A stretch of 64,000 nucleotides of DNA from an uncultured Chloroflexia bacterium (GCA_963768655.1 CAVYIM010000004.1:32001-96000); one strand, 5' to 3'; numbered from the stretch's first letter, positions 37,269-53,549 are shown. Numbers and translations are program-made. Notes: generated from the letters alone by a model not told the origin.

Positions 37269-38528
37269 ATGCGCCGACACGGCCAGCAGGACTGGCGTCT
37301 GCTGCTCAGCCTGTACTGGATCACCTCGTTCGTCGAAGGCTTCGGAGTGGCGCAGGTCTACGCCTTCCTGCCGAATCGACTGGCCGAAGTGGGCATGTCG
37401 ACGCCCGACATCGACCGCTTCGTCGGTGTGCTCGGCGCGCTCTTCTTCCTCACGGGGCTGCCGCTCGTCCCGCTGTGGGGCGTCTGGGCGGACAAGTACA
37501 GCCGCAAGGCGGTAATAATCCGCAGCGCGCTCGTCGAGGTCGTTGTCTTCGGCGTGGTCGGGGCCAGTCGCGAGCCCTGGCAGCTCGTCATCGGGGTCCT
37601 GCTCGTTGCCTTCCAGCTGGGCAACAGCGGCGTGATGATGGCGGCCATCCGCGACGTCACGCCTACGCACCGGCTGGGCCTGGCCATGGGCGTCTTCGCG
37701 GCCAGCAGCCCGCTCGGCTTCGGAGTGGGCCCGGCGGTCGGGTCGGTCATGATCGACCAGCTGCACCTGGCCAGCGGCAACGTCTTTGCCGTCGCGGCGA
37801 TCCTCTCGGCGGCGGTGGCGCTGATGCTGGCCGTCGGATCGGCCGAGGTCCGGCCCGAAGTCGTCCCTCAGGGAAGCGTTCTGAGGTTGGCCTTCGGAGC
37901 CGTGCGGGGCGTGCTGTCGGACCGGACCGTGCGGTGGCTGTTCACCATCTACGGGATCGCCTTTCTGGGCCGCCAGATGTCGACGCAGTACCTGGCCCTG
38001 CTCGTGCACGACGTTGAGCACACCCCACTGGACGTGGCCGGCTCGATAGGGCTGGTGCTCGGCCTGGCCACGATCGTGGGCGCCTCTCTGTCGCCTCTGG
38101 GCGGCTGGGTCGCCGATCGCGCCGGCTTCCGGACGGTGATGGTGGTTTCGATGGGCGGCCTGGCAGTCGCCTTCGCGGCCCTGCCGCTCGCCCCCTCGGC
38201 GGCCTGGATGGCAGTCGCGTACGGCCTGGCGGTCGCCTTCCAGGCCGTTGTCGGGGCGATGGTATCCGGGATCCTGGCAGTCGAAGTACCGGCCGAGCGC
38301 CGCTCGGCGACGCTCAACCTGGTCTTCCTGCCGCTCTATCTGGGTGGCATCGTGGGACCGGCCCTGGGCTCGGCGGTCGTCGGCTCGGGCCTGCGGTCCG
38401 TCTTCTACCTGGCGGCCGTTGTCCTCCTGGGAGGCCTGATCGTCGCGATCGTCTTTGCGCGTCGAACGAGCGGCGCCCACAGGGTGCCGCTCGCGGGAGT
38501 CGCCGAGGGCGCCGAACCGGCCGATTGA
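37269..38528 (+). CDS. MFS transporter
   Basis: About 12 TM helices; WGVWADKYSRK and GGWVADRAGFR motif-A copies. TACGCT 6 nt before the ATG suggests a leaderless mRNA. Confidence 0.9.
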   Translation: MRRHGQQDWRLLLSLYWITSFVEGFGVAQVYAFLPNRLAEVGMSTPDIDRFVGVLGALFFLTGLPLVPLWGVWADKYSRKAVIIRSALVEVVVFGVVGASREPWQLVIGVLLVAFQLGNSGVMMAAIRDVTPTHRLGLAMGVFAASSPLGFGVGPAVGSVMIDQLHLASGNVFAVAAILSAAVALMLAVGSAEVRPEVVPQGSVLRLAFGAVRGVLSDRTVRWLFTIYGIAFLGRQMSTQYLALLVHDVEHTPLDVAGSIGLVLGLATIVGASLSPLGGWVADRAGFRTVMVVSMGGLAVAFAALPLAPSAAWMAVAYGLAVAFQAVVGAMVSGILAVEVPAERRSATLNLVFLPLYLGGIVGPALGSAVVGSGLRSVFYLAAVVLLGGLIVAIVFARRTSGAHRVPLAGVAEGAEPAD

Positions 38529-38582: not shown

Positions 38583-39770
38583 CTAGCGACCCAGTGCCGG
38601 GACGTCCATCTCCGCCGGGCCGACGTACCGGGCGTCCGGCCGGATCAGCTTGTCGGCCGAGGCCTGCTCGATGGCGTGGGCGCCCCAGCCGGCCATGCGG
38701 GCCAGGGCGAACGTCGGCGGGAAGAGGTCGGGCGGGAGGCCGACGCCCTGAAGCACCGCGGCGGCGTAGTACTCGACGTTGGTCTTGATGACGCGGTCCG
38801 GCTTCAGCTCGCCGAAGACGCGCAGGACTACGTCTTCCACCTTGACTGCCACGTCGAGCCACTCGGCCATGTCGGCCATGCCCTCGGCCACTTTCCGTAG
38901 GGCTGCGGCGCGGGGGTCGTAGGCGCGGTAGACGCGATGGCCGAAGCCCATGATCCGGTCGCCGCGGGCGATTGCCTCGCGGACCCACTTCTCGGCGTGC
39001 TCGGGGGAGCCGATCTCGTGGAGCTGGCTCACGACCTCGGCCGGGGCGCCGCCGTGGAGCGGGCCCTTCAGGGCGCCGATGGCCCCGCAGATCGCACTCG
39101 CCAAGTCGGAGCGCGTCGAGATGATGACCCGGCAGGTGAATGTGGAGGCGTTCAGGCCGTGCTCCGCCCCGACGATGAAGTACGCGTCCAGGGCACGGGC
39201 GTCGGCAGGATCGGGATCCTTGCCGGTCAGCTGCTGCAGGAAGCCGCCCGCCAGAGAGAGCTTGGGGTTCGGCTTGACCGGCTCGAGGCCGTTGCGCAGG
39301 CGGTGGAAGGCCGCCAGCGCGGAGGGCGCGAACGCGGTGACCTCCCGGGCCTGGTCGACGGTGGGCGGCCAGTGCGGCCGGCGCCACGCGCCCCAGACGG
39401 ATACCGCGGTGCGCAGCGCGTCCATGGGATGGGTGTGGGAAGGCAGCTCGTACAGCGCGCACATGACGGGCTCCGGTACCGGGGCAGGCACCAGGCGCGC
39501 GGACTTGCGCCACTCACCGGTCCAGAGCAGCTCGGCGACGCGGCCGTAGGTGCCCTTCTCGACGAGCTGGCCGATGGGGTAGCCACGGTACAGCAGCCGG
39601 CCATTCGCGCCGTCCACGAGACCGACCGCCGTTTCGGCGGCGATCACGCCTTCGAGGCCCGGTGAGTACGGTCGCTCCGGCTTCGGCGCGGCCTCGGCCG
39701 GCGCCGGCGGCGCTGCCGCCGCGGGCTCGTCCACGATGGGGGCAGCGGGGTTCTGTGGAGTCGTCGTCAT
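38583..39770 (-). CDS. Citrate synthase / 2-methylcitrate synthase
   Basis: GLEGVIA, LLYRGY, EHGLNAST, LKGPLHGGA, MGFGHRVY..YDPRA, TNVEYY. Confidence 0.95.
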   Translation of the reverse strand: MTTTPQNPAAPIVDEPAAAAPPAPAEAAPKPERPYSPGLEGVIAAETAVGLVDGANGRLLYRGYPIGQLVEKGTYGRVAELLWTGEWRKSARLVPAPVPEPVMCALYELPSHTHPMDALRTAVSVWGAWRRPHWPPTVDQAREVTAFAPSALAAFHRLRNGLEPVKPNPKLSLAGGFLQQLTGKDPDPADARALDAYFIVGAEHGLNASTFTCRVIISTRSDLASAICGAIGALKGPLHGGAPAEVVSQLHEIGSPEHAEKWVREAIARGDRIMGFGHRVYRAYDPRAAALRKVAEGMADMAEWLDVAVKVEDVVLRVFGELKPDRVIKTNVEYYAAAVLQGVGLPPDLFPPTFALARMAGWGAHAIEQASADKLIRPDARYVGPAEMDVPALGR

Positions 39771-41247: not shown

Positions 41248-41952
41248 CTAGCTCGAAGGCGTCGGGCCGGGCGTCTCGTCCGGGACCTCGATGCTGACGA
41301 GGAAGGACGTGTAGGCCAGGCTCGATGGACCCCGGATCACTTCGGCGAACACGTTTTGGAACGCTCCGCTCTGAGCAGTCAGCTCGACACGGCCCCCATG
41401 CTCGTCCGTGGCGCAATGGAACGTCGCGCCCTGAACGGCCTGAGCGAACGGCACGCTCGTTCCCGGATCGGTGCTGGCCAGCACGACGAGATCGTCGGGC
41501 CCGCTGCACACCACGTGAATGGCGATTTGGGGCGCCGGTGGCAGGAGGTTGCCCCCGACCGAGCCCCCGGCTGGGCCACCATCCCCAAAAGATTCCTGGA
41601 ATTTCCAGCCGGCCGGGGCGCTTGGAGCCGTCGGCATCGGAGTGGGCTCCGCACTCGGGCCGCTTCCGGTTCCGATGTTTCGCGGCAGAAACACGAGCGT
41701 GAACGCGCCCGCCGCGACCACGATGACCGCTGCCAGAGATACGCCGACCCTGCCTGCTCGCCCCAGCGATCGCCAGGCCGCGTTCGCCCGGCTGGTTCGA
41801 GATTCGGTCGGCGTCGTCATCGGAAGCTCCCTCACGTACGAATACAGAGTCTGCGGCGCCCCGGGCGTAAGGCGGTCGTCGAAGACGCCCGACAGACGCT
41901 CGTCCAGCTCGGCATCGGATATAGGGCGGTGGGTGCGCCCGAGGGACTTCAT
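41248..41952 (-). CDS. Putative anti-sigma factor (single TM)
   Basis: ATGA-coupled to the ECF sigma; short cytoplasmic N-terminus, one TM, extracytoplasmic domain with a Cys pair. Confidence 0.65.
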   Translation of the reverse strand: MKSLGRTHRPISDAELDERLSGVFDDRLTPGAPQTLYSYVRELPMTTPTESRTSRANAAWRSLGRAGRVGVSLAAVIVVAAGAFTLVFLPRNIGTGSGPSAEPTPMPTAPSAPAGWKFQESFGDGGPAGGSVGGNLLPPAPQIAIHVVCSGPDDLVVLASTDPGTSVPFAQAVQGATFHCATDEHGGRVELTAQSGAFQNVFAEVIRGPSSLAYTSFLVSIEVPDETPGPTPSS

Positions 41953-42521
41953 CGCTCGATCTCCCGGCGCAGCAGACGCTGCGCGTAGTGCAGCCTCGAC
42001 TTCACCGTGCCCACGGGCAGGTCCAGGTGAGTCGCGATCTGCTCCAGAGGCATATCTCGCCAGTAACGGAAGACGATCACCACGCGCTGCTCCGGAGACA
42101 GACAGGCAAGTGCCCGGCCGACCGCATCCCGATTTAGGGTGGCTCGAAATGGGTCGGCCGTGGCGACGCCCAATTCGTCGTCGAGAACCAGCAATCGAAC
42201 CCGACGGCGCGCCTGGATGCTGTTACGACACACGTTGACCACGATGCGGTCCAGCCAGGCGCCGAAGCTGTCCGTGTCGCGCAGCTTCGGCCAGGCCTGC
42301 CATGCTCGAACGAGTGCCTCCTGGACGGCGTCCTCGGCCTCGCCTCGGTCGCCCAGCAGATAGCCCGCCAGCTTGTAGGCACCGTCGAGGTGGCGAGTCG
42401 CGAGCCGGGCCCACTCGACGCCGAGCTCTGTAGCATCGGGTGCGGACGCAGATGCAGACGCGTTCGCTCTCTGCGCCATCATCGCCTCCGCTGAGGTGTG
42501 TCCAACTGCGGCTTTCTCCAT
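41949..42521 (-). CDS. ECF RNA polymerase sigma factor
   Basis: AEDAVQEA, FGAWLDRIVVN, LSPEQRVVI, IATHLDLPVGTVKSRL. Confidence 0.95.
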   Translation of the reverse strand: MEKAAVGHTSAEAMMAQRANASASASAPDATELGVEWARLATRHLDGAYKLAGYLLGDRGEAEDAVQEALVRAWQAWPKLRDTDSFGAWLDRIVVNVCRNSIQARRRVRLLVLDDELGVATADPFRATLNRDAVGRALACLSPEQRVVIVFRYWRDMPLEQIATHLDLPVGTVKSRLHYAQRLLRREIER

Positions 42522-42805: not shown

Positions 42806-44254
42806 ATGTATCCTCGCCGCCGCTGGGCCGTCGTCTTCGGGGCGATCCTGCTCGTCGGGGTCGTGGAGGCGCTCAGCGACTCGCTGCTCGACGCGGTCTT
42901 GCCCTTCCCGTTCGACACCCTCGTCGTCCTGACGGTCGTGGCGGCCGTGGCGATCGTCGCCGCCTGGTACGCGTTCCGGATCATCGACCGCCTGACGAGC
43001 GACCTAATCCACAGACATCAGGCGCTCAAGTTACGCAATGCCGCCTTGCGGGCCGTATACAACGTCAGTCTCGCGGTTGCCGGGCAGGCCGACCCGGACG
43101 AGACTCTGGCCGCCATCGTCGACCACGCCAGGCACCTGCTCCGGGTCGACGCCGCCCTGCTGGCCCTGGAGGGCCCGGAGGACGAGGTTCGCTTGCGCGC
43201 CTCCAGCGCCTCGCCGGGCGTGCTGATCGACGGGGCCGGCAGGCAGACCGTCGGGGCGCGGCGCGCAGCGAGGGTCGCTCCCAACGGCGGCTCGGGCAGC
43301 GACCTGTCTCGATACCTAGCGCCCGGGTACTCCATCAGGCTTGAGATGCCGGTGGGTCACGGCGAGGCGCGTGTCGGCTCCATAGGGCTGGCCACGGCAC
43401 TGCCGCGCCGTTTCTCCAGCGCGGATCTGGAGACGCTCTCGGCGCTGGCCACCCAGGTGGGACTGGCGCTCGAGGCGGCCCGCCTCCGCGACGAGCTGCG
43501 CGCGCTGGCCGTCCAGGGCGAGCGCGAGAGGATCGCCCGTGAGATGCACGACGGCATGGCCCAGGTGCTCGGGTACGTCAACACGAAGTCGCAGGCTGTG
43601 GAGGAGCTTCTCGCCGCCGGGCGAGTCGCCGAGGCCGGCAAACAGATGGCCGAGCTGGCGGCCGTGGCGAGATCCCTCTACGTCGACGTGCGTGAGGCGA
43701 TCCTGAGCCTGTCGCCGCCCGTCCTGCCCGAGCGTGGCCTTGCCGCTGCGCTCGAGGAGTACGCGGCGCGATTCGCGGAGTCCTCCAAGATGGCCGTGCG
43801 CTTCAAGGCGACTTCCGATGCCGGCAACCTAGCCCTGGCTCCCGAGGTAGGGGCGGAGATGTTCGGAGTCGCCCGCGAGGCGCTCACCAACATCCGAAAG
43901 CACGCCTACGCACGGCGGGTCACGATCGGCCTGACGGTCGAAGCCGCGGACGTGCTGCTGCGGATCGCCGACGACGGGATCGGCTTCGACGCGGAACGGG
44001 CCGGTTCGGAGCCTGAGAAGTGGCCCCACTTCGGGCTTGCCGGGATGCGAGAGCGAGCCGAGGCGGTCGGTGGTCGAATCGAATGGCGAAGCCGCCCGGG
44101 AGCGGGCTCGACGGTCGAGCTACGCGTCCCGGTTGCTCGAGGTCGCAACGGGGGCGGCTTCCCGCCATCCGGACCGGCTGATGCGGCAATCCGTCTCTCA
44201 GCGGGGCACCAGGCGGTCCAATCGCCCATACCTACCCATTCCGAGGCAGACTGA
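42806..44254 (+). CDS. Sensor histidine kinase (2 TM, GAF, HisKA_3, HATPase)
   Basis: ERERIAREMHD, EALTNIRKHA, DDGIGFD, HFGLAGMRERA; GGAGG before ATG 42806. Confidence 0.93.
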   Translation: MYPRRRWAVVFGAILLVGVVEALSDSLLDAVLPFPFDTLVVLTVVAAVAIVAAWYAFRIIDRLTSDLIHRHQALKLRNAALRAVYNVSLAVAGQADPDETLAAIVDHARHLLRVDAALLALEGPEDEVRLRASSASPGVLIDGAGRQTVGARRAARVAPNGGSGSDLSRYLAPGYSIRLEMPVGHGEARVGSIGLATALPRRFSSADLETLSALATQVGLALEAARLRDELRALAVQGERERIAREMHDGMAQVLGYVNTKSQAVEELLAAGRVAEAGKQMAELAAVARSLYVDVREAILSLSPPVLPERGLAAALEEYAARFAESSKMAVRFKATSDAGNLALAPEVGAEMFGVAREALTNIRKHAYARRVTIGLTVEAADVLLRIADDGIGFDAERAGSEPEKWPHFGLAGMRERAEAVGGRIEWRSRPGAGSTVELRVPVARGRNGGGFPPSGPADAAIRLSAGHQAVQSPIPTHSEAD

Positions 44255-44258
44255 GTCC

Positions 44259-44954
44259 ATGCGAACACTGCTGGTGGACGATCACGCGCTATTCCGCGAT
44301 GGTGTGGCGTCGCTCCTGCTCGCCTGGGGCCACGAGGTGGTGGGGCAGGCCTCCGACGGCGAACAGGCGATCGAGCTCGTGGAATCGACCGCGCCTGACG
44401 TCGTCCTGATGGATGTCCGGATGCCCAAAGTCTCGGGCCTGGAGGCGACGGCGGAGATCAAGGCGCGCCATCCGGAAGTTGCCATCGTGATGCTCACGGT
44501 CAGTGAGGAAGAGGCCGATCTCTTCCGCGCCATCAAGGCCGGCGCCCAGGGCTACCTGCTCAAGAACCTCGAAGCGCCCCAGCTCCGCTCGATGCTGGAG
44601 GGCGTTGCCCGCGGCGAGCCGGCGATCACGCCGGGTACGGCCGCGCGCATCATCGACGAGTTCCTCCTCTCACCCGGCGGCGGCGCCGCTTCCCGATCCC
44701 AACGGCTCACCGAGCGTGAGCTTGGCGTGCTGCGCCTGGTTACCGAGGGCCTGCGTAACCGCGAGATCGCAGCCGAGCTCGGAATCAGCGAGAACACCGT
44801 GAAGTTCCATCTGAAGAACATCGTCGAGAAGCTGCACGCCCAGAACCGGGCCGAGCTCGCGGCCCGAGCCGTCCGCGAGGGCCTCGTGCCGGAGACGTAC
44901 CGGCACGACGGCGTTGGAGGCGCTCGCCGCGACGGGCCGTTCCGCCGCCGCTGA
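44259..44954 (+). CDS. NarL/LuxR family response regulator
   Basis: LVDDHALFRDG, DVVLMDVRMP, GYLLK, LTERE, ISENTVKFH. Confidence 0.95.
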   Translation: MRTLLVDDHALFRDGVASLLLAWGHEVVGQASDGEQAIELVESTAPDVVLMDVRMPKVSGLEATAEIKARHPEVAIVMLTVSEEEADLFRAIKAGAQGYLLKNLEAPQLRSMLEGVARGEPAITPGTAARIIDEFLLSPGGGAASRSQRLTERELGVLRLVTEGLRNREIAAELGISENTVKFHLKNIVEKLHAQNRAELAARAVREGLVPETYRHDGVGGARRDGPFRRR

Positions 44955-45103
44955 GCCGCGCCATCTCGCGCTGAGCCGCGCCATCTCGCGCTGAGCCGCG
45001 CCACCTCGCCCTGCCGCGCCCCGCGCTGAGCCGCGCCTCGCCCTGCCGCGCCCCGCGCTGAGCCGCGCCTCGCCCTGCCGCGCCATCTCGCGCTGAGCCG
45101 CGC
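44950..45103. repeat. Intergenic tandem repeat (gctgagccgcgcc core, 6 copies)
   Basis: Units of 20-35 bp beginning at the regulator stop codon. Confidence 0.9.
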
Positions 45104-45223
45104 CGCCCACGTCGGGCGATGCGCCCACCCGCCCGGGTAGCACAACTCCGGCCCTCCGGCAGATGCGGACGCGCCTGGCGCCCGCGACCATTCGGTCGAG
45201 AAAGCATATGGCCGAGGCGTCCA

Positions 45224-47245
45224 ATGGGTTATCGGATCCAGATCGAAAACGGCAACTGCCTGAACTGCGGCGTCTGCATGGACGTCTGCCCGGTTCAGGC
45301 GCTGGACATGAGCCGCCCGCAGCGGCCCGGGGTCGAAGGCGCCGGCATCTTCGGGCGGCCCTTCGACTGGATGATGGAGTACCCGGTCCAGGTCGGAGAG
45401 TGCGTCGGCTGCGGCATCTGCGTGCGCGAATGCCCAACCCACGTCGTGATGCTCGACACTGTCGCCGGTCCGACGCCGCTCGCCGCTCGCCAGGGCCCGG
45501 TTTCGCGGCCCGTCGAGGCGGCGCCCGCATGGCAGCCGCTGGGTGACGTAACGCGCGAATCGCTCAAGCCGGCCCGCGTGTCGCCATGGGGCGATCTCTT
45601 CCAGTGGCGGACCAGCGAGCGACCGAACGACTGGCAGGTCTGGCGGTCGATGGTCACCGAGAGCCGCCGGGATCCCATTTCGCCGTGCCAGGAAGCCTGC
45701 CCGGCCGGGACGGACGCAGGTCGTTACGTCGGCCTGATCGCCCAGGGCCGCTACGACGAGGCCTATGCGGTCGCGGCCGAGGTGAACCCCTTCCCGTCGG
45801 TCTGCGGCTGGATCTGCACCGCTCCGTGCGAGGCTGTGTGCCGGCGCGGCACCCTGGACGAACCGATCGCGATCCGCCGTCTCAAGCGATTCGCGACCGA
45901 GCAGGGCAAGCTGCCGCCCGTGGCCCCGCCCGCGAACAAGCGCTCGAAGAAGGTCGCGATCGTGGGCGGCGGGCCGGCCGGAATGTCGGCCGCCTACTAC
46001 CTCGCCCGTCTCGGCTATGGAGTGACGGTCTTCGAAGCGATGCCGGTGCCGGGCGGCATGATGGCCATCGGCATCCCGGAGTACCGCCTGCCGCGCACCG
46101 TGCTGCGGGCGGAGATCGACCGCATCGTCGGCCTCGGCGTGGAGCTCAAGCTCGACAGCGCCATGGGCCGCGACTTCACGCTGGCCGATCTGGAGACGAA
46201 GTACGACGCCATCTTCCTGGCGACGGGCGCATCGCGCAGCCGCAAGCTCGGCGTGCCCGGTGACGGGCTGCCGGGCGTCGTGCCCGCCACGTTCTTCCTC
46301 AAGCAGGTCAACCTCGGTGAGAAGCCGGTCCTGCGCGGCTCGGTCGTGGTCGTCGGCGGCGGTAGCACGGCCATGGACGCGGCTCGCTCGGCGCTCCGTT
46401 CGGGCGCTTCCTCAGTAACGGTCCTCTACCGGCGCGGTCGGGCCGAGATGCCGGCTCAGGCTGAAGAGGTCGAAGCGGCCGAGCATGAGGGCGTGGTCAT
46501 CCAGTTCGAGGCGGCCGTGTCGGAGGTCGTCGGTTCGGCCAAGGGCGTGACGGCCGTCAAGTTCGTCAGCCAGCGCCCCACCGGGAAGTTCGACGGCGGC
46601 CGTGCCGTCTACGAGCCGATCCCCGGCAGCGATCGAGAGAAGTCCGCCACCACGGTGCTGGTGGCGGTGGGCGAGGAGCCCGACCCGTCGATCCTGCCCC
46701 AGGGCGCGGGCATCGAGACCAGCGGCTTCTCCGGCATCGTGGCCGACGCGGGTCAGGCGACGGGTCGCAGGGGCGTCTTCGCCGGCGGCGACGTCGTGTC
46801 GGGCGCCAAGACGATCATCCATGCCGTCGGCGCGGGCCGGCGCGCCGCCGGCTCGATCCACGAGTACCTGTCCGGCAGCCACGACGGCGAAGCCGAGATC
46901 ATGGCCACAGTCCGAGTGCCCAAGGGTCCGGAGCCGGTCCTGACGGTGGACCTGGACGTGCGGCCACGAGTCGGGATGGAGCTGCCCGCGTACGAGCCGG
47001 GATCCTTCACGCCGACTCAACCCAGCCTGGGGGTGGCGGCCGCCGGGAAGGAAGCGACCCGCTGCTTCCGCTGCGACGCCATCTATCGCTGCGAGACGGT
47101 CCACGTCCAGTCCGGCCGGGGCCCGCGGGACGGCCCGCGCGACGGCCCGGGCGATAGTTCGGGGCCAGGCAAGACTCCCCTCATTCAGCCCCCGCTCGCG
47201 GGCCCAGCGAGCAATCCTCCACAGACTCTCGGAGGTCGCGACTGA
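45224..47245 (+). CDS. 2x[4Fe-4S] ferredoxin fused to a GltD/NfnB-like FAD/NAD(P)H oxidoreductase
   Basis: CLNCGVCMDVCP, CVGCGICVRECP, PCQEACPAG, CGWICTAPCEAVCRRG, VGGGPAG, GIPEYRLP, GGGSTAMD, FAGGD, EATRCFRC. Confidence 0.92.
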   Translation: MGYRIQIENGNCLNCGVCMDVCPVQALDMSRPQRPGVEGAGIFGRPFDWMMEYPVQVGECVGCGICVRECPTHVVMLDTVAGPTPLAARQGPVSRPVEAAPAWQPLGDVTRESLKPARVSPWGDLFQWRTSERPNDWQVWRSMVTESRRDPISPCQEACPAGTDAGRYVGLIAQGRYDEAYAVAAEVNPFPSVCGWICTAPCEAVCRRGTLDEPIAIRRLKRFATEQGKLPPVAPPANKRSKKVAIVGGGPAGMSAAYYLARLGYGVTVFEAMPVPGGMMAIGIPEYRLPRTVLRAEIDRIVGLGVELKLDSAMGRDFTLADLETKYDAIFLATGASRSRKLGVPGDGLPGVVPATFFLKQVNLGEKPVLRGSVVVVGGGSTAMDAARSALRSGASSVTVLYRRGRAEMPAQAEEVEAAEHEGVVIQFEAAVSEVVGSAKGVTAVKFVSQRPTGKFDGGRAVYEPIPGSDREKSATTVLVAVGEEPDPSILPQGAGIETSGFSGIVADAGQATGRRGVFAGGDVVSGAKTIIHAVGAGRRAAGSIHEYLSGSHDGEAEIMATVRVPKGPEPVLTVDLDVRPRVGMELPAYEPGSFTPTQPSLGVAAAGKEATRCFRCDAIYRCETVHVQSGRGPRDGPRDGPGDSSGPGKTPLIQPPLAGPASNPPQTLGGRD

Positions 47246-47886
47246 TGGACTCACCGGCGTTCGGTGCAGCCGAGCAATTCGTCGAAGGGACGATAGCCGC
47301 TGCGCTCGTGGCCCTGTGGCTGCTGGCTGTCGCCCTGCATCTGGCCAGGCCGTACATGCTCGCCCTGACGCGAAAGTTCACGCTCCGGCTCGGAGCCGAT
47401 CTGTGGTGGACCATCTACGTCGGGATGCGGGACATCTTCCTGCTGCAGGTCTTCCTGGGCAGCTTCATCTTCTTGTACCCCGACGTCGTCAAAGCCAACG
47501 ACCTGCCGATCACGGGCGGGCTGGCCGGCGCCTGTGCCTTCGCCGCCCTCCTGCTCAAGCTGATGACCAGGGCGGATGCCGACTCGCGAAGCTTCTACGC
47601 GCAGACCGTGTTGATCGCGCTTGGAGCCTCCCTCTACCTGGGTGCCTACTTGCTCGGCAGCCAGATGACGACCGTCGGCAGCAGCATCTCGAACCAGCTG
47701 GCCTCGATCCTGGTGAGCTCGCAGAACCAGACGATCGCGCTGGCGCTGTGCTATCTGTCGGCGCTCCTAATCGGGATCATGGGAATCGTGGCCGTCGTCT
47801 ACAACCTCCGCCTTGCCTCACCAGCCCCGCGCAAGGCCGATGCCGTCGCTGCCAGCCAGCCCGCGGCCAAGAACCAGGAGAGATAA
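47245..47886 (+). CDS. Hypothetical membrane protein (about 5-6 TM)
   Basis: TGATG coupling to the oxidoreductase; GGAGG RBS; ALHLARPY..FTLRLGADLWW.IYVGMRD. Confidence 0.85.
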   Translation: MDSPAFGAAEQFVEGTIAAALVALWLLAVALHLARPYMLALTRKFTLRLGADLWWTIYVGMRDIFLLQVFLGSFIFLYPDVVKANDLPITGGLAGACAFAALLLKLMTRADADSRSFYAQTVLIALGASLYLGAYLLGSQMTTVGSSISNQLASILVSSQNQTIALALCYLSALLIGIMGIVAVVYNLRLASPAPRKADAVAASQPAAKNQER

Positions 47887-47888
47887 CG

Positions 47889-48523
47889 ATGTCGCCCGAC
47901 CAGCAGACTCAGGCACTCGTTCAGGGCACGCAGTACTGGCTGATCCTCTCTGTCGCGGCCATTCTGCCCATCCTGTGGGCCTTCACTCTTGCGCTCCACT
48001 TCGCCAGGCCGTACGTCATCCGCTACCTGCAGACGCTGACTCTGCGGTTCGGCGGCGACGTGTGGTGGCTCAGCTACGTCCTGATGCGAGATGGACTGCT
48101 CGTCGTGACGTTCGCTCTGAGCGCCATCTTCCTCTTCCCGAACGTCTACATGAGCTCCGACCTTCAGGTGCCGATCACGGCGCCGCTCGCCGCGCTGGTG
48201 CTCTTCTGGGCCCTGCTCGCCAAGCTCACCGGCGACTCCGACGACGACGCCCGGACCTTCCGCATCGTCTCGGTGCTGCTGGTCGTCGCCTCGATGCTCT
48301 ACATCATCCCGCAGATCTACGGTGTCGAGGCCGGCGACCAGGTGGACTCGCTGAACGCCATCGCCAACCTGGGGGGATCCCGGGCGCGCTCGTCAGCGGC
48401 GTCAACCCCAGCGTCTCCTACCCGATTCTCAATCTCAGCCTGCTTGGATTTGCCGCTACCGGCGCGGTCATCTTCGGCTGGTTCCTGCGCAAGACGAAGT
48501 TCGAGCCCGCGGATCTCGGGTAG
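47889..48523 (+). CDS. Hypothetical membrane protein, paralog of the preceding gene; frameshift in the G-run near 48371-48376
   Basis: ALHFARPY..LTLRFGGDVWWLSYVLMRD. The last TM (YPILNLSLLGFAATGAVIFGWFL) continues in another frame after GGGGGG. Confidence 0.8.
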
Positions 48524-48554
48524 GCGGCGGGCATTAGCTAGCCGGCCGCTCGAG

Positions 48555-48590
48555 AAGGACCGCCGCTCTTCGGAGCGGCCGTCCTTACTT
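48555..48590 (+). terminator. Stem-loop with UUCG loop after the membrane protein genes
   Basis: aaggac-c-gccgctc-ttcg-gagcggc-c-gtcctt-actt. Confidence 0.6.
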
Positions 48591-48685
48591 GCGCTCGGAG
48601 CCGCGCTCGGTGGCCCTCCTCGCCCCCGGCTTCCTATTCCGCGGCCGCTGCCGACACCCCTGGCACGTACCAGAGGCAATCGGCC

Positions 48686-48988
48686 ATGAACGTCGAAGCG
48701 ATCGACCCAACGTCCACCGCGACTCCCGCGGCGACGGCCGCGAGCCCGCCGGCGAGGAAGGCGCCACCTGCCCGGCCCGCCGCCCCGCCCGCGGCCCGGC
48801 AGGTCACCGTCGCGGCGCTGACGACTCCGGCGGCGACGGCCACCGTCACTTCAGTGCCTGCGAGCGTGGCGCCCGAAGATCGGGCGCTGTACCTGCAGAT
48901 CCTGAAGTCTCTGGACGGCAACGTGAACGCGGCTCTTGCCACGCTGCAGGCGTTGCAGGCCAAGGATGGTTCCGCGGGTCAGAGCTAG
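48686..48988 (+). CDS. Small hypothetical protein (Ala/Pro-rich linker, short helical C-terminus)
   Basis: GAGG RBS; codon usage fits; stop lies in the CTAG shared with the IS end. Confidence 0.55.
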   Translation: MNVEAIDPTSTATPAATAASPPARKAPPARPAAPPAARQVTVAALTTPAATATVTSVPASVAPEDRALYLQILKSLDGNVNAALATLQALQAKDGSAGQS

Positions 48989-49414
48989 TGTCCCAATTCG
49001 CCGATCACTGAGGGCTTGCGCACCGCCTTGGCCAGGATCTGATCGGCGGTCTTGACCCAGGCGAAGGGCGTAGAGCCCTCGTTCCAGCTGGCCGTGAAGG
49101 CCACGATCATCGCGATGAGTTCCTTGACCGAACGGAAGCTGCCCCGGCGAATAGCCTGACGGGAGAGGATGCCGAACCAGGTCTCGATCTGGTTCATCCA
49201 GGACGCGCTGGTGGGGGTGAAGTGAAAGCTAACTCGCGGATTAGCTTCGAGCCACTCGCGGATGGCCGGCGTCTTGTGGGAGCTGACGTTGTCGAGCACG
49301 ACCGCAAGTTCTCCCTGCGGATAGGCCCGCTCGATCTCGCGCAGGAAGGCCAGGAAGTCGGCAGCCGTGTGGCGAGCCCGCGTCTGAGTGGTCACCTTGC
49401 CAGTGGCGACTTCC
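48985..49414 (-). mobile_element. IS630-family transposase 3' remnant
   Basis: EVATGKV, VVLDNVSSHK, FHFTPTSASWMNQIETWF, RRGSFRSV. Ends at CTAG; N-terminal HTH and first catalytic Asp are absent. Confidence 0.9.
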
Positions 49415-49821: not shown

Positions 49822-50694
49822 CTACCCCCGCAGCCCCGCCGGTATCCGTGCCGCGGCGGCCTCGTCGACGATCCAGGCAGCGCCAGGACGACGGGTTCGC
49901 TGGACCGGCCAGCGGCGATCGTCGCGCACCTCGCCGAAGACGTGGCCCAGGGCCTCGTCCTTGTTCTCGCCCCACGTCACGACCAGCACTGGCGCGGCCT
50001 CGAGAAGGCGCGGATTGAGCGTCACGCGAGGCAGGTGAGGGCCGATGTGCTCGGGAGCCGGCACGCCCATCGCCCAGTCCATCCGGTCCAGCGCGGGGCT
50101 GTCGGGGAAGACCGAGAGAACGTGGCCGTCGTCGCCGACGCCGACCAGGATGAGATCGAAGACGGGCCAGTTGCCGTCCGCGAGGGGGAGGTGGCGCCCC
50201 ATCTCCTCGGCGTAGCGGGCGGCGCACCAGGCGGTGTCGTGGTAGTCCGCGATGGCCCGATCCGTCGGGAAGACGTGGATGTTGGCCGTCGGGAGAGGCG
50301 CGCTGCCGTGCTCGCCCGCCCCGCCCCCCAGAAGCACGTCGTCCAGACTCGTCACGTTGGATTCGGGGTGACCTCGCGGCACGTAGCGGTCGTCGCCCCA
50401 CCAGAAATGGACTTGCTGCCAGGGAATGCGATCGCACAGCGGCAGCTGCGACAACAGCCGGTAGATCGGTATTGGCGTGCTGCCGCCGGTGGTGCAGAAG
50501 TCGGCCCGGCCGCGCCGCTCGACGGCGGCCACGAGCGCCGCGGCGATCCGATCGGCAGCCTCGCGCGCGGCCGCGCCGGCATCGGCCACGACCAGCAGGT
50601 CGGGCTCGCCCTGGTTGGGGGCCGGGAGGCCCGAGGCGCTGGTGCCGGCCAGGCGTTCGGGCGCTCGAAACAGGTCCGGGTCTTGCTCAGTCAT
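49822..50694 (-). CDS. pgl: 6-phosphogluconolactonase
   Basis: TGGSTP, WGDDRYVP..HPESN, FDLILVGVGDDGHVLSVFP, RVTL. Confidence 0.93.
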   Translation of the reverse strand: MTEQDPDLFRAPERLAGTSASGLPAPNQGEPDLLVVADAGAAAREAADRIAAALVAAVERRGRADFCTTGGSTPIPIYRLLSQLPLCDRIPWQQVHFWWGDDRYVPRGHPESNVTSLDDVLLGGGAGEHGSAPLPTANIHVFPTDRAIADYHDTAWCAARYAEEMGRHLPLADGNWPVFDLILVGVGDDGHVLSVFPDSPALDRMDWAMGVPAPEHIGPHLPRVTLNPRLLEAAPVLVVTWGENKDEALGHVFGEVRDDRRWPVQRTRRPGAAWIVDEAAAARIPAGLRG

Positions 50695-51881
50695 GGTCCT
50701 GACTCCTGCGCCTTTCCACACCTTTACGCGGCATCGGCTGTGCTGCGATCAGGCGGCCCGCCATCGACAGTGCGTCGGCCGCGACCGAATCGCCGGCGCT
50801 ATCTTCCAACGCCCGTCCGAGCAGGTCTACGTCCCCAAGTCGGGGAGCCAGATACGTTCGTCGGACGCGCTCCCGGCCCTTGTCGTGGATGCTGACCTCC
50901 ACGGTGCGATCTCCGGCCGCAACGTCGCCCACCAGTTCGGCGCCGCGCAGCCGCGAGACGATCTCGACCCGCACGGTCGACCCTTGGCCCAGGTCCGAGC
51001 AGACCGGCCGCCACTCGGCGGCCACCGTGTGATCGCCCTGGCGCAGGGTGGCAACCCTGCGGCCGTCGGGGAGCCTCCGCACCGGCTCGACGACGCTCAT
51101 GCCCAGGCGAGACGCCAGCCAGGCCACGTGATAGACGGGCCGCACGACGTTGGTCAGCGCCGCCGGGTCGCCCTCCTCGGGTGCAGCGAACTCGACCGTG
51201 ATCGACCGAACGGCTCGCAGGTGCGGCCGAAGGTCGGGCAGGTCGTAGACGGAGGCCAGGGCCTCGCGCCAGCGGGCCTGGCGAAGCATTGCGAAGTCGG
51301 CGACGACCAGGCGCCGGGCCTGTGTCACGAGCGCCATCGCGCCAAGACGGTCCAGGCCATCGCCGGACCACGAGGAGCCGTCGACGATGAGTCGATCGGC
51401 GATGGGCAGCAGCCGATCGGCCCGATGTGAGCTGAACTGCGGGTCGCGCGGCCACCACAGCGCCACGGGCAGATCGTGGACGAGCAGGGGAATGATGATC
51501 GAGGCCAGGTGATGGCCCGTCTGGCCGTGCAGGGTCACGTAGATCGTCTCCGCCCAGGCCTGGTCGCACCCCGGTCGCGCTCGCCTCGGCGATCGTCCCG
51601 ATCGTGGCGTCGAGACCGGGCCGGCCCTCCTCGTCGAGCGCGGACAGGATCAGCGACCGCGAGGGATGCCGTCCGGCCGTGGCCTCGACGAGGGCGGCGC
51701 AGCGCTCTGCCGTCTCTCGCCGCCCCGCGACGACGACCAGGTTGAGCACGCTGGAACGAGCGGCGACGTGGTGCTCGCCCTCGCCGCGGTGCGTGGCCTT
51801 GCCCGCCCACGCCTGAGCCAGCGCGCGCTCGATCTCGGGCACGGAGTGCAGGACCTCGGGCGCCTTCAGATTCGGCGCCAT
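50687..51881 (-). CDS. opcA: G6PDH assembly protein OpcA, frameshift near 51570 (probable indel)
   Basis: RSSVLNLVV and HPSRSLI in one frame; LLVHDLPVALWW, DRLIVD, WREALASVYD and WLASRLG in the next. Confidence 0.88.
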
Positions 51882-53494
51882 CGGCGCTCGTCCCGGGCCA
51901 TCAGCTCGTCGGCCGCCTCCGGACCCCAGGTTCCGGCCGCGTAGTTGGGGAAGCGTGGCGCCGGCATGGCCGCCCAGCACTCGATGATCGGCGTTACTAC
52001 GGCCCAGGCCGCCTCGACTTCGTCGGCCCGCGTGAAGAGCGACGCGTCGCCGAGCAGGGCGTCGAGGATCAGGGTTTCGTACGCGTCGGGCGAGTCCACG
52101 GCGAAGGACGTCCCGTAGTCGAAGTCCATGTTGACCGTCCGGACGTCCAGACCCAGGCCCGGAACCTTGGCGGCGAAGCGGAGCATGATGCCCTCGTCTG
52201 GCTGGATCCTCATCGCCAGGACGTTGGGTGCCGGATCGCCGGTCGACTCGTGGAAAAGAGGCAGCGGCACTTCCTTGAACTGGATCGCGATCTCCGTCGC
52301 GCGCTCGGGCAGCCTCTTGCCGGCACGCAGGTAGAAGGGCACGCCGCTCCAGCGCCAGTCGTCGATCGTGAAGCGGCCGGCGACGTAGGTCTCCGTCTCC
52401 GATTCGGGGTCCACCTCCGGCTCTTCACGGTAGCCTAGTACGGCCGCGCCCCCGACCCAGCCGGAGCCGTACTGCCCGCGCACCACGTCGCGCCGGACGT
52501 GCTCGACGTTGGGCGTCGTGATCGCCCGCAAGACCGCCAGCTTCTGGTCGCGCAGGGCGTCGGCGTGGAACGAGGAGGGCGGCTCCATGGCCACGAGTGT
52601 CATCAGCTGCAGCAGATGGTTCTGGAGGATGTCACGGCTGGCGCCGGTCTCCTCGTAGAAGCTTCCTCGACCCTCAACGCCGAGCGACTCGGCCACGGTT
52701 ATCTGGACATGGTCCACGTAGCTGCGGTTCCAGACCGGCTCGAAGATGCCGTTGCCGAAGCGAAAGACCAGGAGGTTGCGGACGGTCTCCTTGCCCAGGT
52801 AGTGGTCGATGCGATAGACCTGCGACTCGCGCAGAACCTTGGCCACCTCGTGGTTGAGTCGGCGGGCCGATTCGTAGTCGCGGCCGAACGGCTTCTCCAC
52901 GACCACGCGACGCCAGCCCGAGCCGCGCAATTCGTGGTCGAGCCCGACGCGGCCCAGCTGGCGGATGATCTCCGTCACCTGAGACGGCTGCGTGGCCAGG
53001 TAGAACAGGCGGTTGCCGGCGGTGCCCCGTTCCGCGTCCAGGGCGTCGAGCCGGCCGCTCAGGCGGTCGAAGCCGGCGTCGTCGCCGAAATCGAGCTGCT
53101 GGTAGGTGATCCGCCGGGCCAGCTCGGTCCACGCCGCCTCGTCGAGAGGCTGCACGCGCGAATTCGCCTCCACCGAGGCACGAACCTCGGCCACGAACGC
53201 CTCGTCGGTGTACGGCCGGCGGGCCACTGCGACCAGGCTGAACTCGGCCGGCAGGAGGTTCGTCCGCCACAGCTGGTAGATCGCCGGCATCACCTTGCGA
53301 TGCGCGAGATCGCCTGTGGCGCCGAACAGGACGAAGCTGCACGGATCGGGGACCCGCTCCAGACGGAGCCCCTGCCGGAGCGGATTGAGATCCGCGTCCG
53401 AGCGGTGCCGGCGGCGCGCGGAGGAGGTTGCCTCTCGGAGCTGGCGGGCAGTTCTGGCCGGTGGCGGCGGAACGGGGCCGTGAGTCGTGCTCAT
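51866..53494 (-). CDS. zwf: Glucose-6-phosphate 1-dehydrogenase
   Basis: FGATGDLA, VVEKPFG, RIDHYLGKETV, RDILQNHLLQ, WRWSGVPFYLRAGK. Confidence 0.98.
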   Translation of the reverse strand: MSTTHGPVPPPPARTARQLREATSSARRRHRSDADLNPLRQGLRLERVPDPCSFVLFGATGDLAHRKVMPAIYQLWRTNLLPAEFSLVAVARRPYTDEAFVAEVRASVEANSRVQPLDEAAWTELARRITYQQLDFGDDAGFDRLSGRLDALDAERGTAGNRLFYLATQPSQVTEIIRQLGRVGLDHELRGSGWRRVVVEKPFGRDYESARRLNHEVAKVLRESQVYRIDHYLGKETVRNLLVFRFGNGIFEPVWNRSYVDHVQITVAESLGVEGRGSFYEETGASRDILQNHLLQLMTLVAMEPPSSFHADALRDQKLAVLRAITTPNVEHVRRDVVRGQYGSGWVGGAAVLGYREEPEVDPESETETYVAGRFTIDDWRWSGVPFYLRAGKRLPERATEIAIQFKEVPLPLFHESTGDPAPNVLAMRIQPDEGIMLRFAAKVPGLGLDVRTVNMDFDYGTSFAVDSPDAYETLILDALLGDASLFTRADEVEAAWAVVTPIIECWAAMPAPRFPNYAAGTWGPEAADELMARDERRWRRI

Positions 53495-53549
53495 CTGTCG
53501 ACGCAATGGCGGCTGGCGGGGCAGCCCGGGCGCGGCCGCGGTCCGGCTG

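Follow-up and report, generated by a model that had tools for sequence, protein, structure and literature searches.

Genomic organization of the locus

A 64,000-nucleotide (nt) stretch of DNA from an uncultured Chloroflexia bacterium (hereafter the window, whose numbering is used throughout) was analyzed with a focus on an operon on its plus strand, at positions 42806 to 48523. The initial annotation of this DNA had placed five genes there and read them as a candidate membrane redox system. Pfam searches and inspection of the sequence recover all five, which encode a GAF-domain sensor kinase, a NarL-type response regulator, an iron-sulfur flavoprotein, and two membrane proteins, here called MEM1 and MEM2 (Table 1). 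The MEM family and its pairing with one particular type of ferredoxin are undescribed, with no name, model, or structure. The window has a G+C content of approximately 69%, and its source genome (G000) comprises 3.37 Mb in 9 contigs, with a completeness of 88.6%. Source names given for homologues of the window's membrane protein are Candidatus Limnocylindrales and Chloroflexota, and the owner of the operon is a peat-soil Chloroflexota bacterium.

The last three genes are tightly coupled, as first annotated. The TGA stop codon of the flavoprotein gene is overlapped by the ATG of MEM1 (TGATG), and only 2 nt separate MEM1 from MEM2 (TAA-CG-ATG). The hairpin described as closing the operon is also present; none of 200 shuffled sequences folds equally well, and it likely marks the end of the transcript. 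It was missed by a simple terminator scan because no T-run lies 3' of it.

Table 1. Features of the operon and its leader region, in window coordinates
Feature	Position	Strand	Description
Sensor histidine kinase	42806..44254	+	Two N-terminal hydrophobic helices, then GAF, HisKA_3, and HATPase_c (Pfam)
NarL/LuxR-type response regulator	44259..44954	+	Response_reg receiver and GerE helix-turn-helix (Pfam); starts 4 nt past the kinase stop
Variable tandem array	44949..45104	+	TRF: period 20, 8.8 copies
Conserved leader/promoter region of the flavoprotein operon	45095..45223	+	13-locus alignment
Flavoprotein domain: 2x[4Fe-4S] ferredoxin with conserved extension of ~70 residues	45224..45670	+	Fer4_7/Fer4 (Pfam)
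Iron-sulfur flavoprotein, 673 amino acids	45224..47245	+	Ferredoxin domain, Fer4_20, FAD/NAD(P)H Pyr_redox_2 core, RC[FL]RCDxxYxC, low-complexity tail
MEM1, 213 amino acids, five-helix membrane protein	47245..47886	+	AlphaFold2 predicted local distance difference test (pLDDT) 93
MEM2, paralogue of MEM1	47889..48523	+	Split over two frames: 47889-48377 and 48379-48523
G+C-rich hairpin 3' of MEM2	48551..48591	+	-46.5 kcal/mol, z -3.7

A flavoprotein with a family-specific ferredoxin domain

The flavoprotein had been described as an N-terminal 2x[4Fe-4S] domain on a GltD/NfnB-like core, and its domain content bears this out. A Fer4 dicluster domain is followed by Fer4_20 (PF14691, E 3.1e-16), the Cys motifs of which are invariant in 13 orthologues, and by a full-length Pyr_redox_2 domain (PF07992, E 6.5e-37, profile positions 1 to 291 of 291). 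Fer4_20 followed by a two-Rossmann domain for flavin adenine dinucleotide (FAD) and NAD(P)H is the arrangement of GltD/NfnB-type proteins. Residues ~145 to 620 align with solved chains in the PDB at E values from 6e-106 to 2e-57, the closest being NfnA of NfnABC (9n5u_A, 6e-106), 9bov_A, StnC (8oh5_C), and NfnB (4ylf_B and 5jca_L); the small chain of glutamate synthase (6s6s_G) is also among the matches. The YRR after the second Rossmann motif resembles, we presume, that of NADPH-specific relatives.

At the same time, the protein scores under the curated cut-off of every NCBIfam model in a comparison with named equivalogs that included gltA, GltD, AegA, YgfK, and others. The best score was for PRK12771 (465.5 versus 516 bits), and TIGR01316 reached 314.9 versus 471.75 bits. 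Judged by its sequence, the flavoprotein thus appears to be a new variant of the NfnB/GltD-type NAD(P)H iron-sulfur flavoproteins. The C-terminal RC[FL]RCDxxYxC motif is conserved among the 13 orthologues, and the tail behind it is variable.

The ferredoxin domain is marked by the extension of about 70 residues after its second cluster motif, with the pattern QGP..L..T+E.LK..PWG..W..R..W. This extension is common to the flavoprotein, to the free ferredoxins of archaeal type described below, and to a free ferredoxin of the Chloroflexota genome G150. The source genome encodes four other GltD-like paralogues, none of which aligns to flavoprotein residues 1 to 148. One of them (G000:C9:111019-116526), with 41% identity to the flavoprotein core, stands beside NuoF-like and NuoH matches, and this cluster may be Nfn/Stn-type or linked to complex I. 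In agreement with the initial annotation, the operon contains none of the usual partners of a GltD-type subunit (GltB, NfnA, or a NuoE/F-like protein); instead, MEM1 and MEM2 lie directly downstream, as they do across the 80-locus survey described below, and the regulator pair lies upstream.

MEM1 and MEM2 represent an undescribed membrane protein family

MEM1 and MEM2 are paralogous, as had been stated, with 43% identity over 127 amino acids (E 2e-29). The sequence motifs reported as shared between them are real and conserved, except that the spacer from RPY to TLR is x8 and not x7. In the window, MEM2 does not form a single open frame: the frame at 47889-48377 runs into nonsense, and the conserved C-terminus is encoded in the frame of 48379-48523. 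Compared to four of four close relatives, the window is one base short near 48370-48373, in CTGGG[C/G]GGGATC. The site is spanned by one related contig from each of four runs, each with one extra base, and an intact MEM2 of 207 to 211 amino acids is present in 12 of 12 loci of the same genus. An assembly error is the simplest reading, because this is a long-contig assembly and the site contains a G-run.

Hydropathy indicates five membrane helices in MEM1, and AlphaFold2, supplied with 47 diverse sequences, returned a confident all-helical model (pLDDT 93; predicted template modeling score, 0.85). As the initial annotation had anticipated, the pair matches no known family. Foldseek against the PDB gave nothing at E ≤0.001 for the MEM1 model, the top rows being cytochrome b chains (E 0.4, TM 0.28). 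VIA-align against 48,161 chains recovered only generic or designed helical bundles, with a best Z of 9.7, and according to the tool's own note a Z below ~13 can reflect a mere common arrangement in helical proteins. In Pfam, the only match was DUF4077 on the last helix (E 0.0012, 19.2 bits versus a cut-off of 25), NCBIfam gave no match, and a profile search against PDB sequences gave E values of at least 0.55. In a protein atlas, MEM falls in unnamed Chloroflexota clusters, with named clusters scoring ≤0.79. Among the papers listed by literature searches on Limnocylindria ferredoxins, Micrarchaeota electron transport, and ferredoxin quinone oxidoreductases, none concerned the MEM family.

Conservation was assessed in sets of 25 and 47 diverse MEM sequences. 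D52 and R62 are invariant in both, P88 is invariant in the 25-sequence set, and R35, Y37, R48, W55, D63, and P79 are nearly invariant in one or both. Position 32 is occupied by H, Q, Y, or N, depending on the family member, which weakens the earlier suggestion that a conserved His could bind a cofactor. Neither set contains an invariant or nearly invariant Cys or Met. Among the best 120 of 1469 MEM homologues, identity ranges from 80 to 96%.

Several lines of evidence point to a topology with the N-terminus outside and the C-terminus inside. Besides the charge distribution, these are family members in which a signal peptide and an extracellular domain precede the MEM part, and a naturally occurring fusion that continues from MEM into a K-rich linker, an additional helix, and a pyrroloquinoline quinone (PQQ) propeller. 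This orientation would place the RPY..LRLGAD loop, the most conserved one, and the DxDxD loop in the cytoplasm, where the ferredoxin could dock. R62 and D63 would lie at about mid-membrane, judging from helix 48-77 of the model.

The ferredoxin module is the constant partner of MEM

One genome per species was scanned, yielding 466 stretches with MEM relatives, of which the best 80 loci were kept. By title, these are all Chloroflexota metagenome-assembled genomes, except one labeled Sulfotelmatobacter. MEM1 is immediately preceded by the flavoprotein gene in 80 of 80 loci and immediately followed by MEM2 in 79, the sole miss being a contig that ends 56 bases past MEM1. Within the genus, the pair was found in 16 of 24 sampled genomes, always as two adjacent matches, and the order kinase, regulator, flavoprotein, MEM1, MEM2 is the same in all 12 fetched loci. 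None of 16 genomes of a small-genome family of the same order contains the pair.

An even sample across the phylum showed the MEM family in 38 of 401 genomes, nearly always as two tandem matches. Fourteen regions from other families of the phylum were fetched. One, from the same class, carries the full five-gene cluster, and 11 of the other 13 carry flavoprotein, MEM1, and MEM2 without the kinase and regulator upstream. In genome G150 (locus L133), the pair is preceded by no flavoprotein core; a free dicluster ferredoxin of 145 amino acids occurs with MEM1 and MEM2 amid housekeeping genes. The thirteenth region is locus L134 of genome G355, where the search turned up no ferredoxin.

A full hidden Markov model search of 1.84 billion representatives returned only 255 MEM clusters (50% identity) at E ≤0.001. 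They include a divergent subgroup of lower G+C content, represented by 20 metagenome loci with a single MEM gene each. The homologues of one of its members are named, where names are given, Candidatus Micrarchaeota, Micrarchaeia, and Marsarchaeota. No GltD-like core was found in these 20 loci. Nevertheless, a 2x[4Fe-4S] ferredoxin that matches the flavoprotein from residue 1 to ~80-150 adjoins MEM in 16 of them, with a shorter ferredoxin in the P0250-type subgroup. In 14 cases it is encoded directly downstream; in L108 it lies on the other strand, 839 bp off, and in L125 it lies 923 bp off, past a LamG fusion. Among the four remaining loci, L113 and L124 leave no room and L123 little room for such a gene, and L120 is a genuine exception. 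The other neighbors vary and include ribonucleotide reductase, DNA polymerase B, malic enzyme, SdhA, and cupredoxins. At L108:1460-3565, a MEM of archaeal type is joined by a K-rich linker and one more membrane helix to a PQQ beta-propeller, with cupredoxin and ferredoxin genes nearby.

A profile of the ferredoxin with its extension separates genomes with and without MEM. Each of five MEM-positive genomes has one match of 175 to 222 bits, covering positions 1 to 140/145 and located beside MEM, whereas five of five MEM-negative genomes (≥90% complete) show nothing above 39.7 bits or beyond position 100. In two relatives that lack MEM (G164:C34:32599-32844 and G225:C21:31402-31653), frames of 663 to 697 amino acids begin with a plain dicluster ferredoxin, and the extension is absent.

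The membrane family had been proposed to be tied to the flavoenzyme. This holds in the Chloroflexota, in the 80 surveyed loci and 11 of the 13 regions from other families, but not for the family as a whole, which occurs without a GltD-like oxidoreductase in loci of Micrarchaeota/Marsarchaeota type, in other metagenome loci, and in one Chloroflexota genome. Since loci without the flavoenzyme keep a matching ferredoxin, the obligate partner of MEM is the ferredoxin module and not the whole flavoenzyme. The free-ferredoxin loci, together with the presence and absence of the profile, likewise show that the conserved core consists of MEM and the extension-bearing ferredoxin. In the Chloroflexota, MEM was duplicated and the ferredoxin became joined, in most lineages, to an NfnB-like flavoprotein.

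Natural fusions of MEM to the flavoprotein were also considered. The long matches P0130, P0215, P0251, P0253, and P0122 proved to be frameshifted read-through and were rejected as fusions; they show adjacency only. Further single-member long MEM matches, judged by the flavoprotein Pfam domains that they carry, are likewise taken to show adjacency only.

The duplication was examined in a maximum-likelihood tree of 59 MEM sequences, with a midpoint root for drawing only. A single-copy clade (support, 100/99) and a Chloroflexota clade (100/99) are resolved. Within the latter, the MEM1 sequences (24 rows; 99/96) and the MEM2 sequences (23 rows; 98/94) form a clade each. All sampled Chloroflexota lineages are represented in both, indicating that both copies have been kept since an old duplication. 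Such retention would fit an obligate heteromer.

Regulators, leader region, and surrounding genes

The kinase and regulator belong to the NarL/NarX type of two-component systems by domain content, with a HisKA_3 kinase and a receiver-GerE regulator (Pfam). Relatives of the kinase align from residue 1 of the start at 42806. A nitrate-sensing identity is not indicated by the NCBIfam equivalog models: the nearest models for the kinase, NarQ and MctS, score far under their cut-offs (NarQ, 98.6 versus 553 bits), and the nearest for the regulator, NarL, reaches 162 bits versus a cut-off of 250. The sensor part of the kinase is a cytoplasmic GAF domain, unlike NarX, which carries a periplasmic sensor domain. 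Of the 69 loci that extend at least 4.4 kb upstream, all but L067 and L087 carry both genes there (67 of 69), and the two genes are specific to loci of Limnocylindria type.

The tandem array between regulator and flavoprotein consists of ~20-nt units that reproduce the 3' end of the regulator gene, stop codon included. Related loci contain 6 (L014), 2 (L015), and 3 (L019) copies, and the other 9 of 12 same-genus loci contain none. The stretch of ~130 nt that leads up to the flavoprotein start is conserved in all 13 aligned loci, and 32 columns of the alignment are invariant. The elements of this leader are GGGTAG, CCTCCGGCAGATG, and GGCCGAGGCGTCC, the last immediately 5' of the ATG. A second copy of GGGTAG lies ~27 nt upstream in most loci, as judged by eye, and the ribosome-site region is also conserved. 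The leader has no match in Rfam, and a sigma-70 promoter scan of it returned nothing. Its elements are candidate regulator or promoter sites. A search for evidence of expression listed no RNA data set, and the DNA runs shared at most 0.09 of the query words.

Directly beyond the operon hairpin lies a fragment of a DDE_3 transposase (48985-49395, minus strand; a 136-amino-acid open reading frame), in which only the end of the Pfam model is matched. Further downstream, at 49822-53506 on the minus strand, are genes for 6-phosphogluconolactonase, OpcA, and glucose-6-phosphate dehydrogenase. The upstream flank encodes a sigma-70-type factor (41949-42521, minus), citrate synthase (38583-39770, minus), and an MFS transporter (37269-38528, plus).

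Proposed mechanism and alternative explanations

Four things were observed directly, namely, the domain makeup, the paralogy, the linkage of these genes across phyla, and the failure to match a known family or fold. They frame a reading that we put forward tentatively, falling somewhat short of probable: the operon would encode a membrane-bound electron-transfer enzyme that passes electrons from NAD(P)H through FAD and a chain of iron-sulfur clusters to a cofactor-less MEM dimer and from there, probably, to quinone. The docking, the pairing of MEM1 with MEM2, the course of the electrons, and their acceptor are inferred to be as follows. The cytoplasmic flavoprotein would accept hydride from NAD(P)H at its FAD of GltD/NfnB type, and the two clusters of Fer4_20 would relay the electrons to the N-terminal 2x[4Fe-4S] ferredoxin domain. 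By way of the conserved extension, this domain would sit on the cytoplasmic face of a MEM1/MEM2 heterodimer. The MEM pair, having no conserved haem or iron-sulfur ligands, would most likely offer a site for a lipid-soluble acceptor, that is, quinone. The whole would constitute a novel type of NAD(P)H:quinone oxidoreductase, and the two-gene archaeal form would be a minimal module linking a ferredoxin-type iron-sulfur protein to quinone. As part of the same tentative reading, we propose that the GAF kinase and the NarL-type regulator of the operon turn on its expression.

This scheme draws support from the flavoprotein domains, the tight gene coupling, the unbroken linkage across the 80 loci, the common extension, the presence and absence of the ferredoxin profile, the retained paralogues, and the topology. 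A quinone pool in the source genome is plausible because cytochrome bd, NuoH, and a UbiA-type prenyltransferase are encoded there; its respiratory genes also include NuoF, and a COX1 or MqnA-type gene was not found in this 88.6%-complete genome.

Several points weigh against the scheme. With complex I genes present in the same genome, the need for a further NAD(P)H dehydrogenase is not obvious. The quinone site in MEM is putative, and D52, R62, and D63 fit an ion path or inter-subunit salt bridges equally well. The genomes surveyed are related, so the locus counts overstate independent support. No ferredoxin was detected at L134, one of two copies of the pair in genome G355, or within the 1381 bp (~1.4 kb) available at the divergent locus L120. 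The frameshifted MEM2 could be a true pseudogene, in which case this copy of the operon could be inactive. Finally, the AlphaFold2 model of the ferredoxin domain alone is poor (pLDDT 49), too poor for a fold search.

An unlikely alternative is that the MEM pair serves only as an anchor or scaffold, which holds the ferredoxin-flavoprotein at the membrane while electrons are exchanged with another membrane complex or a soluble partner. The variable position 32, the lack of conserved Cys or Met ligands, and a fold that resembles only generic helical bundles are all consistent with this, and fusions to outside-facing Ig-like, PQQ propeller, and LamG domains suggest a docking platform. However, charged membrane-helix residues (D52, R62, and the nearly invariant D63) kept from archaea to Chloroflexota are rare for a plain anchor, as is the high identity among the closest homologues, and two paralogues kept in every sampled lineage suggest more than tethering.

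It is distinctly unlikely that the complex couples redox chemistry to ion or proton translocation or acts as a confurcating or bifurcating enzyme, two forms that we weigh jointly. In bifurcation, the NfnB-like FAD would split electrons between a ferredoxin branch and the membrane quinone, following the logic of FixABCX; in ion translocation, ferredoxin oxidation would drive ions along the polar residues of MEM. In favor of this reading, the nearest PDB relatives of the flavoprotein core (9n5u_A, 8oh5_C, 4ylf_B, and 5jca_L) come from bifurcating or transhydrogenase systems, and the flavoprotein has an extra 3-Cys motif at its C-terminus. MEM itself has conserved polar residues at both membrane faces and mid-helix (R35, R48, and D52; R62 and D63), as well as a conserved E/Q at the end of helix 4 and S..N before helix 5. 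On the other hand, the operon encodes no second flavin protein or NfnA-like partner. The archaeal form consists of ferredoxin and one MEM gene only, so the core module alone cannot bifurcate, and five helices per subunit are few for a known type of ion pump.

A haem anchor like SdhC/SdhD, in which H32 of MEM1 and H37 of MEM2 ligate haem b at the dimer interface, is very improbable and was dropped on account of the variability of this His across the family: in 22 Limnocylindria-type sequences of each paralogue, the residue never varies in MEM2 and is His in at least 90% of cases in MEM1, and the best Foldseek rows, although non-significant, are cytochrome b chains, but Q and Y occur even inside the MEM1 clade, the wide alignment contains no invariant His ligand per subunit of the SdhC/SdhD kind, and the PDB profile search was empty.

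Because MEM adjoins the same ferredoxin in bacteria and archaea, the pairing probably marks an unstudied electron route into the membrane. If the NAD(P)H:quinone oxidoreductase reading is true, it would add a respiratory entry point whose components differ from those of complex I, NDH-2, Nqr, Rnf, or NrfD-type modules, and genome-reduced archaea with only fragments of an electron transport chain would gain a simple link from an iron-sulfur carrier to the membrane; context on respiration in Micrarchaeota is available in PMC8407392. A broader generalization, which we regard as doubtful, is that MEM and the extension-bearing ferredoxin form an unrecognized minimal respiratory module of Chloroflexota and DPANN/Marsarchaeota-type archaea. 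It would deliver low-potential electrons directly to the quinone pool, possibly coupled to ions via the Asp/Arg path, and the NfnB-like fusion in the Chloroflexota would make it a new class of NAD(P)H:quinone oxidoreductase. MEM carriers are common in peat and soil metagenomes. The small size of the family and the confident MEM1 monomer model make expression, co-purification, and quinone-reduction assays feasible.

Comparison with known systems

The operon flavoprotein shares with NfnB/GltD-type flavoproteins the two-cluster Fer4_20 domain and the full Pyr_redox_2 FAD/NAD(P)H domain. It differs from them in adding an N-terminal dicluster ferredoxin with a family-specific extension and in being encoded with two membrane proteins instead of GltB, NfnA, or NuoE/F-like subunits. 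In the long frames of relatives that lack MEM, the match to the ferredoxin profile is confined to its cluster portion and does not reach the extension.

A likeness to E. coli Gcd, which has five helices and a PQQ propeller, is found only in family member L108, with its MEM, one further helix, and PQQ propeller. Kinship between MEM and Gcd was rejected: the hhalign profile probability against the Gcd membrane domain is 0.3%, and the two are unrelated.

In NrfC/NrfD and PsrB/PsrC, an iron-sulfur subunit is docked on a cofactor-less membrane quinone subunit, and SdhC/SdhD-type proteins serve as anchors. The operon follows the same logic, with a poly-cluster ferredoxin-like protein encoded beside a small membrane partner. 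However, the searches revealed neither sequence similarity nor specific fold similarity of MEM to NrfD, PsrC, or SdhC/SdhD, and MEM has five helices, unlike NrfD with eight. In contrast to the periplasmic subunits of NrfC/PsrB type, the operon ferredoxin lacks a signal peptide, and the conserved loops of MEM are predicted to be cytoplasmic. The anammox-type Rieske/cytochrome b operons, compared by description, likewise join a fusion of ferredoxin and a GltD-like flavoprotein by gene order to a membrane quinone unit; there the membrane partner is a cytochrome b, which MEM is not.

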